Positions 3,395 to 38,503 of a DNA stretch of 64,000 bases are shown here, piece after piece (position 1 is the first letter of the stretch; each line of letters begins with the position of its first letter). Source of the stretch: an uncultured Verrucomicrobiota bacterium (GTDB taxonomy: Bacteria; Verrucomicrobiota; Verrucomicrobiia; Opitutales; Seribacteraceae); assembly GCA_902569115.1 (NCBI GenBank), contig CACFTI010000003.1, positions 40,406 through 104,405 of the forward strand. The letters run 5' to 3'. The position numbers and the translations under genes were made by a program. A model generated the notes under the pieces. It was not told the origin of the DNA and did not search any database. It saw only the letters and a program-made list of their open reading frames with translations.

Positions 3395-4567
3395 TTAGTT
3401 TATGCAAAATTCCATTATCCGCACTGCGTTACCGTGAGATGATGGTTTGGCATGAATGGTAATAGTATGCGTACCGGGTTCGAGGTCATGGGCAAACATA
3501 ACTGTTCTGGGGTAGTGTAAATTTCGACTGTAGTTGTGATATAGTTCGGCTTCTTTTGGTGGCCTATCGTCAATTTGAAATTTGATTTTGCCGGCATCAG
3601 GACCGGCGAGCACGAATGCTCCGATTGCCCGCCCCTTGAATTTGAATTGAAGTGGTGCCGCCTCAAAATCAGTATGAAGAAGAGGTGCGTTCAAATATCT
3701 TTTTCTTTTACTCCCCTTTAAATTTGTCCAATTGGGTTCAGAATATTTCCAGCCGTCAGTAAGTTTGACTTTTTTGGGACTGAGGAATCGGCCAAATTCA
3801 TAGTTGAAAGGGGACAATGGGCTTGAGGGAAGAGGGTGGGGTTTAGCAACGGTGGGCGAAGGCCCACTCCACGCAAGATTGAGGAGATGTTCGTGCATGT
3901 CGGCACATAAACGGTTGCCCGGAGTTTTTGGGTGGGTGCCACCAAACTGTCCCCAGGTGAACTTTCCCTTTTTTATTTGTGTGGATAACTCCCTTGCGAG
4001 ATGAATTCTTGAGATCTGATACTTCTCTAAAACTTGCTCATGTGAGGACATGGAAAGAGGTTTTCTTCCTTTATCCAGTTCAGCGAGCATTTTTGGATTA
4101 ACGAAGTAAGTCACGACTATGTCGGTTTGAGGGAACTTTGTTCTTAGTTGACGAATGATTCCCTCCATGCCGCGTATGCAGGCGTCTCGGGAATGAGCCG
4201 CATCCTGGTCATCATTGACCGCAAACTCTAGAAAAAAAAGATCGATCGGTCCTTTCGAGATAACATCCCTTGGTAATCGAAAAGCTCCGGTGGTGGAACA
4301 GGTGGAAGAGATACCGGCATTAATAAAAGTAAATTCAGTTTGGGGGTATTTTTCCTTCAGGAAATTCATAACCATGGGTCTGTAGCCATCCATCTCGGTG
4401 ATAGAACCACCCATGAAAGCAACCGTTGCTGCGTTATTGGTTTCCATTGCAAGGCGTGAATGATCAAAGAAACCCCGAATAGTTATATTTTCTTTTTCAA
4501 AACCTTTGAGGCAGGAAAAGTGTAACAAAAATATAACTTTCGTATATGCTAAGAAGCGGGCATTCAT
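3395..4567 (-). CDS. SGNH/GDSL hydrolase (probable carbohydrate esterase) with C-terminal beta domain
   Basis: FMGGSIT block I, NAGISS block II, EFAVND block III, THP block V; signal peptide. Confidence 0.8.
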   Translation of the reverse strand: MNARFLAYTKVIFLLHFSCLKGFEKENITIRGFFDHSRLAMETNNAATVAFMGGSITEMDGYRPMVMNFLKEKYPQTEFTFINAGISSTCSTTGAFRLPRDVISKGPIDLFFLEFAVNDDQDAAHSRDACIRGMEGIIRQLRTKFPQTDIVVTYFVNPKMLAELDKGRKPLSMSSHEQVLEKYQISRIHLARELSTQIKKGKFTWGQFGGTHPKTPGNRLCADMHEHLLNLAWSGPSPTVAKPHPLPSSPLSPFNYEFGRFLSPKKVKLTDGWKYSEPNWTNLKGSKRKRYLNAPLLHTDFEAAPLQFKFKGRAIGAFVLAGPDAGKIKFQIDDRPPKEAELYHNYSRNLHYPRTVMFAHDLEPGTHTITIHAKPSSHGNAVRIMEFCIN

Positions 4568-32172: not shown

Positions 32173-33333
32173 TTGTTTAATCCATTTAGACCCAAGCAAG
32201 TGGATCTTCTGGTTATCGCCGGTGAAGCTTCCGGGGATGAACACGCAGCAGTTCTCGTGGGGAATTTGAAAAAAAAATTTCCCAATTTAAAAGTAGCGGC
32301 TCTCGGAGGTAAAAATTTAAAAGAGAGTGGTGCCGATTTTCTTTTTGATTTGGTGGATCATGCTGTAGTTGGAGTTTTTGAAGTTTTGAAGAACTATGGG
32401 TTTTTCAAAAAATTATTTTTTTGCACATTGGATTGGATCAGTGATTTTCGCCCCAAAGCTATTCTTCTTATTGATTACCCCGGATTTAACCTGAGACTGG
32501 CTGAAGTACTCAGGAAAAAGGGACTGTCAAAAAAGGGTGGGGGAGAAATTCAGGTTCTTCAGTATGTGAGTCCACAGCTTTGGGCGTGGAAGCCAAAAAG
32601 AAGATTCAAGATGGCCAAGGTGTTGGATTCCCTTGCCGTCATTTTCCCTTTTGAAGTGAATTGCTATGCAGATGTTAGCTTACCTGTATCATATGTTGGA
32701 CATCCTTTTGTTAGCGGTGATTACCGATCACCTGTTAGATACGATGAAAAGGGGCCATTACTTTTGTTGCCTGGTAGTCGAGTTCAGCCAATTCAAAGAA
32801 TTTTTCCTTGTTTTCTGGATGCTTCGGAAAAGCTAATTCAGTCTTACCCCAACTTGAAAATTGAGGTGCCGGTTCCCAATCTTCAGATAAAAGATTGTGT
32901 AGAGCAAATTCTTGCCAAAAGACCACTTCTACAGGATCGGATATTGGTGCGAGTAAACCTTAACGATTTGAAGGCTCGCGTAGCATTAATGAGTTCGGGG
33001 ACGATGTCTTTTGCTTTTGCTCTTGCTGGTATACCAGGCGTGATCGCCTATAAAGCACATATTTTAACCTACCTGTTGGGTAAGATACTGATCAAAGTCC
33101 CTTTTCTAGGGATGGCAAACTTGCTCTTGCCGGATGCACCGCCTTACAAAGAGTTAATCCAACTGGAGGCTCATGGCGAGTCGTTGTCACTGGCTATCGA
33201 GCAAATACTGATCAATCAAAGTGAAAGTCAAAAAGTATTTCAACAGGCATCTATGCGTTTGCAGGAGACCCTGAAGGGTGGTCAGGAACTAGAAGCAGTG
33301 GATTGGCTGACCGATGTACTCGGTATGGCATGA
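32173..33333 (+). CDS. lpxB: Lipid-A-disaccharide synthase
   Basis: AGEASGD, IDYPGFN, YVSPQLWAW, FPFE, VGHP, LPGSR, SSGT. Confidence 0.95.
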   Translation: MFNPFRPKQVDLLVIAGEASGDEHAAVLVGNLKKKFPNLKVAALGGKNLKESGADFLFDLVDHAVVGVFEVLKNYGFFKKLFFCTLDWISDFRPKAILLIDYPGFNLRLAEVLRKKGLSKKGGGEIQVLQYVSPQLWAWKPKRRFKMAKVLDSLAVIFPFEVNCYADVSLPVSYVGHPFVSGDYRSPVRYDEKGPLLLLPGSRVQPIQRIFPCFLDASEKLIQSYPNLKIEVPVPNLQIKDCVEQILAKRPLLQDRILVRVNLNDLKARVALMSSGTMSFAFALAGIPGVIAYKAHILTYLLGKILIKVPFLGMANLLLPDAPPYKELIQLEAHGESLSLAIEQILINQSESQKVFQQASMRLQETLKGGQELEAVDWLTDVLGMA

Positions 33334-34385
33334 TGGGTCATTTGTTCCCAAATTCGAACAGCCTTTTTACTTAGCACATTACGACACCTTTCGACCTCGG
33401 CCATTCTTGATTTGAGGTTCTCGTTGGCAATCAAAGAGACATCATCCATGTTGTACAGGAAAACATTATCCACTTTGGCAACCGATTCATCGATATTCCG
33501 GGGAACTGATGCATCGATCAAAAAAAGCGGTTTGGACGGTCTTTTTTTCATAGCCAGCCTAACCGCACTTGCTGAAATAAGAGACCTTCCGCTTGCTGTG
33601 GAGGTTAGAATAACATCAAAATGGTGTAGTGATTCCTGATATTTTGAAAAAGAGAGAGCGAACCCACCAAATTTTTCAGCTAACTCATCTGGTTTCCTTC
33701 TGCTAAGAGGGCACCAGTCAAAGGTTCTACCTGTAACGGTGATTGCTTGAGACCCTCTCGATCTAAACGCTTCCATTGCAGATTCAGCTACTTCGCCAGC
33801 TCCAATTACGAGTAGGCGTGAGTTGGAAACTTTGCCAAAAATTCGGCGAGCCAGCTCGCACAGAACATTACCTAGGTTAACTTGGCCTTTGGATATACCT
33901 GTGTTGGTTCGTGCCCATTTCGCTGCCTGAAATCCTTTTTGAAATAGACGATTTAGCATCTTTCCGGATACATTACGGTCGCAGGCATCTTCGTAGGCCT
34001 TTTTTACCTGTCCTAATATCTCAGTTTCTCCAACCATTTGAGAATCAATACCCGAAGTTACCTCGAAAAGATGACGAACTACTTTCTCTCCGGAGTGTCG
34101 ATAGGAGTGTTTGCTTAGAAAGTCCGGGTCAATTTCTCGGAAATCGCTCAGATATTTGTGTAAAAGATCGGGGGAAAATCCGTTGCTTGAAGCACCGTAA
34201 ATCTCCGTGCGGTTGCATGTATTTAAAAGCAAGCATTCTTCTAAGCCCGGCAGGGCAGATAGTCCGCTATAAAATTCATCAATTTTGTCCTGGGGTAAGC
34301 TTATTTTTTCGCGCACCGCCAGATCGGCAATGTGATGAGAGCTTCCTAATACATGAAGCGACTTTGAGTATTCGTTACTGCCCAT
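33282..34385 (-). CDS. hemA: Glutamyl-tRNA reductase (short form)
   Basis: TCNRTEIY, SGIDSQMVGETEILGQVK, GAGE, IDASVPRNI. Confidence 0.93.
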   Translation of the reverse strand: MGSNEYSKSLHVLGSSHHIADLAVREKISLPQDKIDEFYSGLSALPGLEECLLLNTCNRTEIYGASSNGFSPDLLHKYLSDFREIDPDFLSKHSYRHSGEKVVRHLFEVTSGIDSQMVGETEILGQVKKAYEDACDRNVSGKMLNRLFQKGFQAAKWARTNTGISKGQVNLGNVLCELARRIFGKVSNSRLLVIGAGEVAESAMEAFRSRGSQAITVTGRTFDWCPLSRRKPDELAEKFGGFALSFSKYQESLHHFDVILTSTASGRSLISASAVRLAMKKRPSKPLFLIDASVPRNIDESVAKVDNVFLYNMDDVSLIANENLKSRMAEVERCRNVLSKKAVRIWEQMTHHAIPSTSVSQSTASSS

Positions 34386-35244
34386 TTCGAGGTTGAACGG
34401 GTATCGAAGAGATGTTGGCGTTTCTATCCTTCGAATTCACGAATCCCATACTTACAATTGCTACAATAAAAAGACTGATTGCTGATTTGGCGAATTTGGA
34501 TCCAAAAAGTCTATTGCTGTATCTTAGAAAAAAAAGAATACAGTAACCTGCCCACAGAAGAAGGGTGATAAATAATTTAAAGGAAGTTACATATTCAGGG
34601 TGGTGTACCCAGTGCATTCCTCCGACAACAATTGAAAGAGTCAAAAAGAGAGTACCCACAAGAAGTAGCCTAAATGCGGAATGATCAAGGTCGTGGATTG
34701 GAGGAAGAAATGTTCCCCAAATTCCTGATTTTTTGGAAAGAAGCGATTTCCTTTGAATTAGATACATACCACTCACGATTGCAAGGAGGGCGAAGATCCC
34801 ATAACTGAAAATTGCAATCGACGCGTGTAATTCAATCCATGGGTCAGAGAAAAGGCGTTGGTAGGTTGACTCCATCCAATATGGATGATCCCACTGCCCA
34901 TTAATCAGGGAAATAATGCCAAATACGCCTGCCATCCCGGAACAAAGGGATCCCAGTAAATTAAGTTTCCAAAGGAGTCGCAGAATAAGGAAGGTTAGGA
35001 TGAGGGACCAAGTGATGAACTGTATCCTTTCAAGGTTGTTACCCAAAGGACACCCGCTGATTTCCAAACCTCTAAGGTAGAGACCCCGAGTCTGTAGGAA
35101 AAAACCGAAGACAATAGCAAGAAGGGTTGCCTGTTTGCAGAAACTATTTTTTGAAAAAAAAGTGCTGGCAAATCCAAAACCGACTGCAAAAACATAGAAA
35201 ATCGATGCAATCCACAGTAAATCTCTTGCTTCGTTAAAATTCAT
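34375..35244 (-). CDS. ccsA: Cytochrome c assembly protein CcsA/HemX-like
   Basis: About 8 TM segments, WIELHA, YLIQ...L..K, typical position upstream of hemA. Confidence 0.75.
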   Translation of the reverse strand: MNFNEARDLLWIASIFYVFAVGFGFASTFFSKNSFCKQATLLAIVFGFFLQTRGLYLRGLEISGCPLGNNLERIQFITWSLILTFLILRLLWKLNLLGSLCSGMAGVFGIISLINGQWDHPYWMESTYQRLFSDPWIELHASIAIFSYGIFALLAIVSGMYLIQRKSLLSKKSGIWGTFLPPIHDLDHSAFRLLLVGTLFLTLSIVVGGMHWVHHPEYVTSFKLFITLLLWAGYCILFFLRYSNRLFGSKFAKSAISLFIVAIVSMGFVNSKDRNANISSIPVQPRNGQ

Positions 35245-35285
35245 AATGATCGGCTGTCAGGCATGAATTCCTAAATAAAAGCCAA

Positions 35286-36395
35286 TTAATCTTGATAATA
35301 AACGGGATCGGACGAAAAGAATTCTCTCATTGCGGCACAGTCTTTTCCGACGCAATTTTCACAACAAGGACGAATGCAGGACTCGTAACTCTCGGTCATA
35401 TGCTCATGGACTAGCTTGGAGCAAAGTTGGATGAAAGCGTTTTCAAGATTGAAGCAGTCTGCCCGACTAAAAAGTTTCCCCGCGTCTTCAACATATTCCC
35501 GGAATTCGATATCGATTTCATCAAGGGTTTCAATGTGATCGGTAGTGAATGCAATCGGGACAATCAAAATTGCTTTTTCTTCCGTCTTTTCTATCACTTC
35601 TGGAGTACTCGGTGACAGCCATTTTGTTCTTTTGGGACCCACTTTACTTTGCCATCCAAGGGCATGGTTGTGTCTTAGCCCGATCTCTTTGAGTTTTCTT
35701 TCGATATTTTCAATGGAGCCTTGAATCTCCTGATTATATCGGTCTCCTTTCTCTAGGCAGTAAGCTTCCGGCAGACTGTGTGCCGAATAAAGAATGAGCA
35801 CTTCTTGATCTTTTAAACTATGGGTATTGGTGAATTCACGAAACTTCTTTTCAATCAGCTTAGCCCATAATTCGGTGTAATCCTGACGATCCCACCAACG
35901 ATCAATCACAGAAATTTTGTTTTTTAATTCGGAATTATCTTTAAGCCAACGGTATGCATCACAAAGACTCGAACCGCTAGTTGAGCAACTATGCTGAGGA
36001 TAATGAGAAAACAAAATAATTCTTTCCGCATCCTGAAATCTTTTTAATTCATCACCAGTACGGGGGACTGCATAGCGGAATCCGGGCACGCAAGCATGAG
36101 GCGCCGTTTGCGGGCTTTGTTCATCCAATGCAGCGGCAATTTGTTCACCCTGTTTTTCCATGATTTTGCGAGTTGGAGAGTACTGACCAAGCTCTTCATA
36201 CCTTTGTTGAATAAAAGGAGTCCTTCTCCAAGCAATAAAATTGCCTAGGATCTTTTGTACAGGAAGTTTGAGCAATTCTCTGTCTTGGAAAAGTTCCTTA
36301 AGGTATGGGTGCACCTCATCAGCAGATTCGGGTCCTCCCATATTCAAAAGTAAAATTGCTGTTTTAACTGTTTTCGGTGTGGGATCTGAAATCAT
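35286..36395 (-). CDS. hemH: Protoporphyrin ferrochelatase, eukaryote-like with C-terminal [2Fe-2S] motif
   Basis: LLNMGGP, YPQHSCSTSGSS, SAHSLP, WQSKVGP, PIAFTTDHIETL.E, C-terminal CENCVGKDC. Confidence 0.93.
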   Translation of the reverse strand: MISDPTPKTVKTAILLLNMGGPESADEVHPYLKELFQDRELLKLPVQKILGNFIAWRRTPFIQQRYEELGQYSPTRKIMEKQGEQIAAALDEQSPQTAPHACVPGFRYAVPRTGDELKRFQDAERIILFSHYPQHSCSTSGSSLCDAYRWLKDNSELKNKISVIDRWWDRQDYTELWAKLIEKKFREFTNTHSLKDQEVLILYSAHSLPEAYCLEKGDRYNQEIQGSIENIERKLKEIGLRHNHALGWQSKVGPKRTKWLSPSTPEVIEKTEEKAILIVPIAFTTDHIETLDEIDIEFREYVEDAGKLFSRADCFNLENAFIQLCSKLVHEHMTESYESCIRPCCENCVGKDCAAMREFFSSDPVYYQD

Positions 36396-36477
36396 GGTTA
36401 GTTATTCAACGGGAAAGTTTATAAAACCTCTAATATCCTAATGTACGATTACATATAGTCAAAGAGAGATATGATCT

Positions 36478-37818
36478 TTAGAGGACCATGCAATTCGGCA
36501 GAGGTGCTCCGTTTATATGTGAACCAAGAATCTGGAGCCCCTTGTTTTGAATACTTAAAGTTGATGCAGCCTTTATTCTCGCGTCCATTGTAGAATCTGG
36601 AATGGGAATCGATTTTGGCCATAATTTAATATGTTCAAATGTCGGTTTCCCTTCAATACCAAGAAGCGTCTGGTTTTCTTTGTAAGCATATTTCAAAATC
36701 TTATTCTCTGGAAGATTGCACAATTCGGGATTTCTTTCTCCACCAACAAAAGTTGTGAGAAGAGCATAGTTTTTCGGAGCTCGATTCTGAAATAAAGTAC
36801 TGGAAAAAAGTGTGCCAAGAATTTTCCGTTTTTCTTTTTCTGGCACAAGAAAACCAAATCCATCCAATGGATGCTGGATTTGTTGTCTTTTGAAACCTTG
36901 AAAGCAAAGGGCGAGGGGAGGGTGGAAAGTTTGTGTAAGTGTCTTAAATAGATGTGCTGCTTTGATGCCGACCCACTCTATATTTAATAGTGCATGGCTC
37001 GGTAGTGTGCTTATCACCTCATCGAAAAGCTCTTCCTTTATTTTACCATCTTGAGTTTCTCCTTGAACGCTCCATTTACCATTATTCTTAATTTCAATTT
37101 TTTTAATTTCACATCCGAGAACAGGAGAAGTTTGCAGTTTTTCTGCTAATCTTTTGGGCAATTCCTGCATTCCTTCTTTGAAAGATACCAGGCGAGAATG
37201 CGAAAGTTTTTCTGATGGTTGAATCCCTCCCCGTATCATTCCCCAAAAAATCGAACCAAATTTACGCTCGGTCTCGTATAAGCTGGGAAATGCATGTTTC
37301 AAAATTAAGCTTTCAGGGCGAGAGGCATAAACACCCCCGATAAAAGGGTTAGCGCCATAATCAAGTGCCTGCTTTCCTAATCTTCTTTTGACAAAACTGG
37401 CCATAGTCTCATCAGAAGAGTTGTCTTTTTTACGGGGAATAAAGGGTTCAAGACAGAGCCTTATCTTACCAAGAGGACTAAGAAAAGAGGATGAGAGAAA
37501 TGAAAGTGGACCTTGGGGTAGAGAGATTACTTGGTTTTTTTTGACAATAAATCTCTTTGAACATTCCTGATTTGCATCTAAAGCATGTTCCAAGATTTTG
37601 TGTTTTTTAAGGAAATCTTCTGTTTTTTTCGTACGAATACTCAAAGTATTTGCACCATAATCCAAAAGATAGCCTTCAGATTTTATGGACTGTAATACAC
37701 CACCTACTTGTAAGTCTTTTTCAAAAACTGATACCTGATTACCTTTACTTTCTTGAGACAAGGCAAGCGACAGGCCAGACAGTCCGGCACCCAAGATGCA
37801 TACTTTTTTTCTACTCAT
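36478..37818 (-). CDS. hemY: Protoporphyrinogen oxidase (HemY type)
   Basis: GAGLSGL, VGG..S, GVYA, GFGFLVP, LGTLFSS..F..RAP. Confidence 0.9.
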   Translation of the reverse strand: MSRKKVCILGAGLSGLSLALSQESKGNQVSVFEKDLQVGGVLQSIKSEGYLLDYGANTLSIRTKKTEDFLKKHKILEHALDANQECSKRFIVKKNQVISLPQGPLSFLSSSFLSPLGKIRLCLEPFIPRKKDNSSDETMASFVKRRLGKQALDYGANPFIGGVYASRPESLILKHAFPSLYETERKFGSIFWGMIRGGIQPSEKLSHSRLVSFKEGMQELPKRLAEKLQTSPVLGCEIKKIEIKNNGKWSVQGETQDGKIKEELFDEVISTLPSHALLNIEWVGIKAAHLFKTLTQTFHPPLALCFQGFKRQQIQHPLDGFGFLVPEKEKRKILGTLFSSTLFQNRAPKNYALLTTFVGGERNPELCNLPENKILKYAYKENQTLLGIEGKPTFEHIKLWPKSIPIPDSTMDARIKAASTLSIQNKGLQILGSHINGAPLPNCMVL

Positions 37819-37877: not shown

Positions 37878-38099
37878 ATGATCGATATAATCACGGAATC
37901 TTTGCGTACGATTGTTTCTTCAGGAAAGGATGGTCAAGGAGATTTGATTTCAGCCCTAAAGCAGTTGGATGACATACTTGAGGAAAAGGAGGCTGATTTG
38001 GATGCAAGGCTTCGTCATTTCCTTCAAAATAGAAGTTATGAAAAAGCCTTACTTTGGATCGAGGGGGGAACTCCGGAAAAAGGGATTTGCCAGAAGTGA
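37878..38099 (+). CDS. Small conserved hypothetical protein
   Basis: 73 aa with RLRHFLQNRSYEKAL; GTGA overlap with yciH. Confidence 0.65.
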   Translation: MIDIITESLRTIVSSGKDGQGDLISALKQLDDILEEKEADLDARLRHFLQNRSYEKALLWIEGGTPEKGICQK

Positions 38100-38503
38100 G
38101 TAGGAAAAAAGAAAGATTGCCCACTGAGCCCGTTACAGAATTTGGTTCCAATCCCTTTGGGGCCTTGGATTCAGAAGGTCTCGATTCGCTACCCACCAAG
38201 CCTTCTTCTGATGCATTACCTCGAGTAAAGGTTGCCTCTACAGAAAAGTTAGGCAGTGGAGAGCGCCTAGAGGTAAGGCGCGAAAAAAGCGGACGCGGGG
38301 GCAAGACGGTAACCACAGTCCGAGGTTTTCCATCAAGGATTACGCAAGATGACTTCAAACGAATGCTCAAAGGATTAAAGTCTAGACTCGGTACTGGAGG
38401 GGGGTGGCGTGATAACCAAATGGAAATTCAAGGTGACCAGCGAGAAGTTATCTGCGAATGGTTAACAGCCTTGGGATTTAGACCGGTCTTGGCAGGAGGT
38501 TGA
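38096..38503 (+). CDS. yciH: Translation initiation factor SUI1/YciH family
   Basis: RREKSGRGGKTVT, LK..LGTGG, IQGD; GTG start at 38096. Confidence 0.9.
   Translation: MSRKKERLPTEPVTEFGSNPFGALDSEGLDSLPTKPSSDALPRVKVASTEKLGSGERLEVRREKSGRGGKTVTTVRGFPSRITQDDFKRMLKGLKSRLGTGGGWRDNQMEIQGDQREVICEWLTALGFRPVLAGG

Follow-up and report, generated by a model that had tools for sequence, protein, structure and literature searches.

The gene hemH (ppfC), located in a 64,000-nt fragment of the genome of an uncultured marine member of the Verrucomicrobiota, raises the question of how a ferrochelatase of the animal and fungal (mitochondrial) type came to be encoded within a bacterial haem biosynthesis operon. 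This fragment (hereafter the window, i.e. the whole stretch of DNA analysed; GenBank assembly GCA_902569115.1, contig CACFTI010000003.1, positions 40,406–104,405) comes from contig C3 of a metagenome-assembled genome (MAG) of the order Opitutales (Candidatus (Ca.) Seribacteraceae), which is 2.38 Mb in size and 70% complete. Close homologues of the enzyme carry the labels Opitutae or Opitutales, and the named relatives include Ca. Seribacter sulfatis and Ca. Chordibacter forsetii, a group presented as marine sulfated-glycan degraders in the work of Wilkie & Orellana (2025), as cited in PMC12714770. The analyses presented below indicate that hemH is likely a xenologue originating from a marine eukaryote, which was inserted among native haem genes, displaced the resident ferrochelatase gene and was later spread onward to another bacterial lineage.

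The hemH open reading frame (ORF) is uninterrupted (Table 1) and its product, which starts approximately 10 residues ahead of the conserved core, matches PF00762 (E-value 1.7e-84, 283.9 bits with a cut-off of 27, profile positions 1–316 of 317) and the hemH family TIGR00109 (269.6 bits, cut-off 124.6). An initial annotation, made from the nucleotide sequence without database searches, had described here an intron-free gene of an animal/fungal-type [2Fe-2S] ferrochelatase placed between hemY and ccsA-hemA. All peptides quoted in its favour are present, the ORF limits are exact and the neighbours are as described, all on the minus strand. In a PDB-wide sequence search human FECH (2qd3/1hrk) was the top match (E-value 1.9e-72; query residues 10–363, chain residues 3–357), followed by the yeast enzyme (6e-59) and, much lower, by Bacillus-type enzymes (approximately 1e-17). 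In the HMMER alignment (with human residue numbers given as the chain index plus 64) C137, C345, C348 and C353 align with human C196, C403, C406 and C411 and, because the last three fall on their human counterparts, the C-x2-C-x4-C spacing is the same as in the human protein. The predicted match of all four cluster ligands was thereby confirmed, in agreement with the animal-type ligation pattern Cys-X~206-Cys-X2-Cys-X4-Cys. Compared with human and animal mitochondrial FECH (1HRK, 2QD3), the window enzyme is 40–45% identical over the full length and shares the catalytic His and Glu as well as the porphyrin-pocket residues (H287, D286, F283 and R107-Y108, corresponding to human H341, D340, F337 and R164-Y165), but its gene lacks introns and a presequence, is part of a bacterial operon and contains lineage-specific insertions and deletions (indels).

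The Cys motif was found in 46 of 49 proteins of the Opitutales clade (at least one of the three exceptions being a truncated fragment) and in each of the 15 full-length loci that were inspected in Verrucomicrobiota genomes. An AlphaFold2 model of the protein (predicted local distance difference test score of 90.5 overall and 71–85 over residues 331–360) was most similar in the PDB to human FECH (1hrk; template modelling (TM) score 0.88–0.91, root-mean-square deviation 2.0 Å, approximately 370 alignment columns), with TM scores of 0.80 for the yeast and 0.73 for the Bacillus ferrochelatase. The model superposes on the human structure including the C-terminal extension, which in the model is folded like that of human FECH. 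Judging from the conserved ligands, the hemH product probably carries a [2Fe-2S] cluster on C137, C345, C348 and C353, as human FECH does.

A single PF00762 gene, hemH itself, is present in the genome from which the window was taken, and genomes of the same genus that are 93–96% complete gave a single match each in a search with the hemH protein, which also detects ordinary HemH. The ratio of nonsynonymous to synonymous substitution rates (dN/dS) of hemH in close pairs is 0.02–0.05, similar to that of hemA, these values being approximate as dS is near saturation. Since it is the sole ferrochelatase gene, adjoins hemY and evolves at such a low dN/dS, hemH should encode the only ferrochelatase of the cell, inserting Fe2+ into protoporphyrin IX made by the adjacent HemY.

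The quoted segments and the Cys spacing had also been regarded as typical of eukaryotes, and this view had to be given up, as both are likewise present in many bacteria. Ferrochelatases of Gemmatimonadota, Trueperaceae, Chloroflexota and Myxococcota (L066–L117) possess a C-terminal CxxCxxxxC motif and are 38–42% identical to the window enzyme. As this tail is present in several bacterial phyla, a best match to animal proteins is, by itself, no proof of a eukaryotic origin. These bacterial enzymes are often encoded in hemN-hemH-hemY operons (e.g. P0173, P0125 and P0287, located on bacterial contigs). They differ from that of the window in that they lack the window-type indels and, in the phylogenetic tree, fall outside the eukaryote clade. 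Ferrochelatases with a C-terminal cluster have been characterised in Caulobacter crescentus and Mycobacterium tuberculosis (PMC8529089). In the maximum-likelihood (ML) tree the bacteria closest to the eukaryotic FECH clade were Gemmatimonadota, Trueperaceae, Chloroflexota and Myxococcota, rather than Alphaproteobacteria, a placement that bears on the origin of the mitochondrial enzyme.

The distribution of the window-type gene among bacteria is narrow. In a survey of the order, based on an even draw of 301 genomes from 41 families and 121 genera, it was found in one family (f1) only, in 8 of 10 genomes of genus g1 and 4 of 5 of genus g19; it was not found in the third genus, g18 (0 of 3), or in the 283 genomes of the 40 other families. 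A scan of 185,579 species genomes yielded 28 loci with an identity above 60%, every one of them labelled Verrucomicrobiota, and no bacterial carrier other than the two genera and one secondary recipient lineage was found among these genomes or among 1.84 billion protein representatives.

Relatives were searched in two protein collections comprising 5.8 and 1.84 billion sequences. The nearest sequences beyond the bacterial clade were P0050 (58% identity) and P0051–P0053 (51–56%) only, followed by ordinary eukaryotic ferrochelatases at approximately 40%. P0050 is a transcript contig with a 340-nt non-coding 3′ end (untranslated region) and a poly(A) run, and without ccsA downstream. P0051 and P0052 have basic, hydroxylated N-terminal extensions, typical of mitochondrial presequences. 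Genomic copies of P0051 are located on Tara Oceans contigs of up to 52 kb, where the neighbours are a p25-alpha gene, a ubiquitin-like gene and a MyTH4-FERM myosin gene; the best named matches of this linked myosin are metazoan myosin VIIa proteins (50–59%, with 59% to vertebrate MYO7A). The genomic FECH is interrupted by segments of 1,255 bp and approximately 250 bp (L023:2188–3442 and ~3797–4043 on a Tara contig, and also in L025 and L026), both of which are absent from the transcript-derived contigs. The 1,255-bp segment contains an ORF of the p25-alpha (TPPP) family on the same strand. P0420 (an "Acipenser" contaminant entry) turned out to be a usual FECH of vertebrates in which exons are duplicated.

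These marine eukaryotic ferrochelatases share with the bacterial ones the Cys motif and all of the lineage-specific indels, but differ from them in their presequences, poly(A) tails and eukaryotic gene neighbours, and in that their genes are interrupted. In the alignment three indels were common only to the bacterial proteins and these eukaryotic relatives: an insertion of 2 aa after WQSKVGP (WQSKVGP-KR-TKWL), a single additional residue within SLPEAYC and the loss of 3 aa following PEVIE. The eukaryotic relatives are 53–61% identical to one another and the bacterial sequences at least 63%.

The phylogenetic tree comprised 92 rows and was computed with IQ-TREE under LG+C20+F+G4 (posterior mean site frequency (PMSF) model), with support expressed as ultrafast bootstrap/Shimodaira–Hasegawa-like approximate likelihood ratio test (SH-aLRT). 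The bacterial sequences formed a clade (100/99) with P0050 as its sister (100/95), the eukaryotic relatives being paraphyletic around the bacterial clade. The joint clade of the bacterial sequences and all eukaryotic relatives (100/100, stem of 1.3 substitutions per site) was placed within a 40-row clade with animals, fungi, Creolimax, Fonticula and aphelids (100/98), itself part of a 53-row eukaryote clade (99/95), outside of which the ferrochelatases of Gemmatimonadota, Chloroflexota, Trueperaceae and Myxococcota branched. In this tree the window gene thus branches with eukaryotic sequences within their clade. A topology opposing the proven eukaryotes to all bacteria was rejected by the approximately unbiased (AU) test (delta log-likelihood (lnL) 186, p 5e-5). 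When the eukaryotic relatives were analysed alone, they were placed beside the opisthokonts (aLRT 94) and inside the eukaryotes (aLRT 97). This placement agrees with the linked metazoan-type myosin, and the genes are therefore read as native there and the bacterial ones as derived. A transfer of hemH from a eukaryote to a bacterium, as was originally proposed, is thus the best-supported explanation and appears probable.

Several observations weigh against this direction. Neither a position of the joint clade beyond the named eukaryotes (delta lnL 19.5, p 0.19) nor a union of the eukaryotic relatives in a single clade (p 0.5) was rejected by the AU test; as both alternatives are left, the nesting rests on the bootstrap and aLRT support. 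The stem of the joint clade is very long (1.3–1.6 substitutions per site) and the bacterial sequences analysed alone formed a basal branch of the family (stem 2.46), a placement that is expected as long-branch behaviour. Signature columns separating eukaryotes from bacteria, of which three were found, are split 1:1:1 and are uninformative. Both interruptions of the eukaryotic FECH start with GCGA and have 3-nt repeats (ACA and TAT) on either side, and are not of the GT-AG type; the introns of the adjoining myosin VIIa gene are canonical (GTAAGT...TAG). Moreover, this FECH lacks the two intron positions common to Capitella and Basidiobolus, and, as its interruptions do not occupy these positions, vertical descent is not confirmed by shared introns. 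The non-canonical interruptions together with the missing positions fit a compact genome with intron turnover, but would also be compatible with the eukaryote having gained the gene late. The search with P0051 for a named organism revealed no named sequence in the clade. Finally, transfer of a ferrochelatase gene from a bacterium to animals is known in nematodes (PMC3596385).

A transfer in the opposite direction would make the window-type enzyme a very divergent bacterial branch of the ferrochelatases with a C-terminal cluster, whose gene was taken from Verrucomicrobia by marine eukaryotes and supplied there with a presequence and interruptions. The failure of the AU test to reject a joint clade outside the named eukaryotes, the basal position of the bacterial sequences alone, the intron structure of the eukaryotic gene and the nematode precedent all speak for it. 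However, the bacterial carriers are limited to two genera of one family and one secondary recipient, with their relatives using other HemH types and no further carrier in the genomes and protein representatives searched. Furthermore, the eukaryotic sequences alone are found beside the opisthokonts, consistent with the linked myosin, are paraphyletic around the bacterial clade in the ML tree and are more divergent from one another than the bacterial copies are. This explanation is considered unlikely.

Alternatively, the Verrucomicrobia and the marine eukaryotes might both have received the gene from an unsampled lineage or vector (a virus, an endosymbiont or a protist group). The long unbroken stem, which would correspond to a long unsampled history, and the lack of any named sequence in the clade are in line with such a source. 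More events would be required than with a single transfer, and no closer relatives emerged from additional searches: a scan of IMG/VR viral contigs with alignment A1 detected no relative and hence no viral vector; a scan of JGI/ENA metagenomes with P0050 alone gave no match; and a scan of the same metagenomes with the alignment of the eukaryotic relatives gave approximately 72 Seribacteraceae-type loci, 6 Akkermansiaceae-type loci and 1 eukaryotic transcript, none of them closer to P0050. A common third source is, in consequence, judged quite improbable.

The initial annotation had offered, as its second possibility, a bacterial clade neighbouring the lineage from which the mitochondrial enzyme came, which would imply vertical inheritance in this verrucomicrobial lineage. 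The native haem operon, the purifying selection and the host-like GC content (42.2% for hemH and 43.3% for the window) are in agreement with this idea. It is nevertheless very improbable, as the distribution is too narrow (with the gene not found in the other 40 families of the survey, nor in g18 within its own family), the slot is empty in sister lineages, which have HemH of other types, other bacterial phyla hold the position next to the eukaryotes and the AU test rejects the separation of eukaryotes from all bacteria.

The integrity of the locus was verified in independent data. Both junctions of hemH are bridged by contigs of marine metagenomes from three independent studies (2014, 2021 and 2025), namely the hemY-hemH junction by X2 record 7 and X4 record 12, and the hemH-ccsA junction by X2 record 5, X6 record 17 and X4 record 12; at least 70% of the stretch is contained in 14 runs from at least nine studies. 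The order hemY-FECH-ccsA-hemA-lpxB was also found in 19 genomes of the genus, in a record labelled AG-892-I21 and in approximately 72 metagenome contigs. That a piece of eukaryotic DNA was wrongly joined to a bacterial contig during assembly or binning, as might be suspected in a MAG that is merely 70% complete, is a negligible prospect given the bridged junctions, the recurrence of the identical arrangement and a divergence among copies that tracks the host lineages.

The transfer from a eukaryote being preferred, the fate of the resident gene can be traced in the relatives of the host. HemH proteins of other Opitutales families are 22–29% identical to the window enzyme (24–29% for L018–L020) and belong to the native insertion type, defined by an internal Cys-rich insertion of 22–34 aa and by orthology to other Opitutales HemH. 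These enzymes catalyse the same reaction and, in more distant families, their genes take the same place in the operon, adjacent to hemY or to ccsA-hemA; they differ in having the cluster Cys residues in the internal insertion (HC..CC..C..C), which is missing from the window enzyme, and no C-terminal motif. The insertion motif was reported in 4 of 4 Verrucomicrobia sampled and the insertion type was described in Opitutaceae and Puniceicoccaceae (Weerth, Medlock, Dailey; PMC8529089); the internal-insertion [2Fe-2S] motif occurs also in Myxococcus xanthus and Bacteroidetes (PMC8529089).

Members of the family without the window-type gene (G007, G021, G024 and G017) have the gene order hemY-ccsA-hemA with an empty spacer of 136–250 bp; three of them (G007, G021 and G024) group together as a single clade in the trees of hemA and hemY. 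A third HemH type, without the insertion or the Cys motif, is encoded at another locus, unlinked to hemA, in G021, G024, G302 and genus g18. This protein (L016, G021:C7:4022–5047; L017, G024:C26) has 372 aa and shows 31–35% identity with the insertion type and 22% with the window enzyme. The family therefore has two alternative HemH types, neither of which is the usual type of the order. No ferrochelatase of any type was found in G007, G017 (84% complete) and G257 (90% complete), and in the first two the hemY-ccsA-hemA slot is assembled and empty; this could be the result of either loss or an unassembled gene. Because relatives show the empty spacer and an unlinked cluster-less hemH, the simplest history is that the new gene was inserted at the hemY/ccsA junction and the unlinked resident hemH was lost thereafter. 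Of the replacement in situ that had been suggested together with the transfer, only a functional displacement is retained.

The following sequence of events is proposed. An ancestor within Ca. Seribacteraceae would have acquired hemH from a rapidly evolving eukaryote of the sea, which was probably an opisthokont, as a copy with neither presequence nor interruptions. In the native hemY-ccsA-hemA operon the gene would have been placed after hemY and ahead of the ccsA-like gene, and by this position would have come to be co-transcribed with the haem genes. The resident unlinked, cluster-less hemH may have been lost afterwards, and the new gene would then have been inherited under strong purifying selection, with recombination within the family and one further passage to a distant marine lineage labelled Akkermansiaceae. 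With somewhat less assurance, although still as the favoured view, it may be specified that the donor was a marine opisthokont, possibly a planktonic animal of small size and compact genome, whose nuclear gene for a mitochondrial haem enzyme passed to free-living, sulfated-glycan-degrading Verrucomicrobia, where the native gene was displaced and from which the new one was passed onward.

The last of these steps is reflected in MAGs labelled Akkermansiaceae, Oceaniferula or Verrucomicrobiales, which carry the gene at 72–75% identity as their only ferrochelatase gene. In these genomes it is flanked by a gene of an M14-like peptidase and by ruvA, with ispG and genes of pyruvate dehydrogenase nearby. 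RpoD of these MAGs is 54–55% identical to that of the window, whereas for a genome of the same genus as the window the values are 79% for RpoD and 68% for FECH. The high identity of FECH despite the distant RpoD therefore indicates a second move, between distant Verrucomicrobiota. Within the genus, two genomes, G019 (C35, L136) and G004 (C177), when compared with window positions 33282–37818, show 87–95% identity in hemY, hemA and lpxB and 62–64% in hemH and ccsA. The mosaic pattern points either to an exchange of the hemH-ccsA segment between species by homologous recombination or to a chimeric bin.

Genes pass from eukaryotes to bacteria far more rarely than in the opposite direction, and the cases concern mostly effectors of intracellular bacteria. 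The candidate described here is an essential, single-copy core enzyme of abundant free-living marine plankton. If the proposed history is true, it is a rare replacement of an essential housekeeping enzyme by a eukaryotic one, and points to a physical association between these bacteria and the donor eukaryote. The displaced predecessor, the defined insertion site and the onward transfer make the steps of xenologous displacement readable from existing genomes. A naturally "bacterialised" animal-type [2Fe-2S] ferrochelatase, working without mitochondrial partners, may be of use to haem biochemists, while sister species having a cluster-less or insertion-type enzyme in the same background constitute a natural experiment on the role of the cluster. 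In the full-text literature no report was found of a eukaryote-type ferrochelatase in Verrucomicrobia or of a eukaryote-to-bacterium transfer of this enzyme. Both the kind of enzyme and its inter-domain transfer were already known; this case appears to be new and unusually well resolved. The nematode example (PMC3596385) concerns the same enzyme and is also inter-domain, but runs from bacterium to animal, and the tubulin genes of Prosthecobacter (PMC1845146) are a precedent for eukaryote-like genes in Verrucomicrobia. Unlike the nematode gene, the window gene likely passed from a eukaryote to a bacterium, and is an essential single-copy metabolic gene of free-living plankton that displaced a native one.

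Table 1. Location of hemH, its predicted functional residues and the adjoining haem genes in the window.
Feature	Position	Strand	Description
hemA (glutamyl-tRNA reductase)	33282..34385	-	Last gene of the cluster; TIGR01035, 291.9 bits; synteny kept in the family
ccsA-like membrane protein	34375..35244	-	PF01578; begins 41 bp past hemH; 11-bp overlap with hemA
hemH-ccsA spacer	35245..35285	-	41 bp; downstream junction of the putatively inserted gene
hemH/ppfC	35286..36395	-	Animal/fungal-type protoporphyrin ferrochelatase, 369 aa, ATG start; without introns or N-terminal presequence
C345-x2-C348-x4-C353 codons	35337..35363	-	Three predicted [2Fe-2S] ligands in the C-terminal extension
E289 codon, in DHIETL	35529..35531	-	Catalytic Glu (human E343); column invariant in alignment A1 and human FECH
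H206 codon, in SAHSLP	35778..35780	-	Catalytic His (human H263); column invariant in alignment A1 and human FECH
C137 codon, in YPQHSCSTSGSS	35985..35987	-	Fourth predicted cluster ligand; column at least 90% conserved in alignment A1
hemY-hemH spacer	36396..36477	-	82 bp (hemY stop to hemH start); upstream junction of the putatively inserted gene
hemY (protoporphyrinogen oxidase)	36478..37818	-	Native upstream neighbour; TIGR00562, 214.8 bits

The minus-strand order of genes in this region is rpoD, tatA, ORF159, hemY, hemH, the ccsA-like gene and hemA, and lpxB on the plus strand converges on the cluster. In Bacillus subtilis, hemA is arranged with hemX (hemAX). By analogy with this arrangement, the ccsA-like gene, which scores 53 bits against the CcsB equivalog cut-off of 187.6, may encode a HemX-like partner or regulator of HemA (glutamyl-tRNA reductase) and not a cytochrome c synthase. 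Among proteins of solved structure, HemY is best matched by tobacco mitochondrial PPO2 (E-value 3e-66), followed by the Myxococcus (1e-44) and human (3e-20) enzymes. The idea of a co-transfer of hemY with hemH, derived from this match, was rejected, as hemY orthologues are present throughout the order (31–38% identity across the order and 45–92% within the genus). RNA run X15 spans hemY and ORF159 only, so it gives no reading on the expression of hemH. ORF159 (37891–38370, minus strand), which separates tatA from hemY, matches no Pfam or NCBIfam family and is kept in the same position in the family with 37–47% identity. HemA has 367 aa and matches positions 2–329 of the 416-position TIGR01035, its C-terminal dimerisation region being apparently shortened, and in hemA of several relatives an in-frame TGA is present close to the 3′ end of the match.

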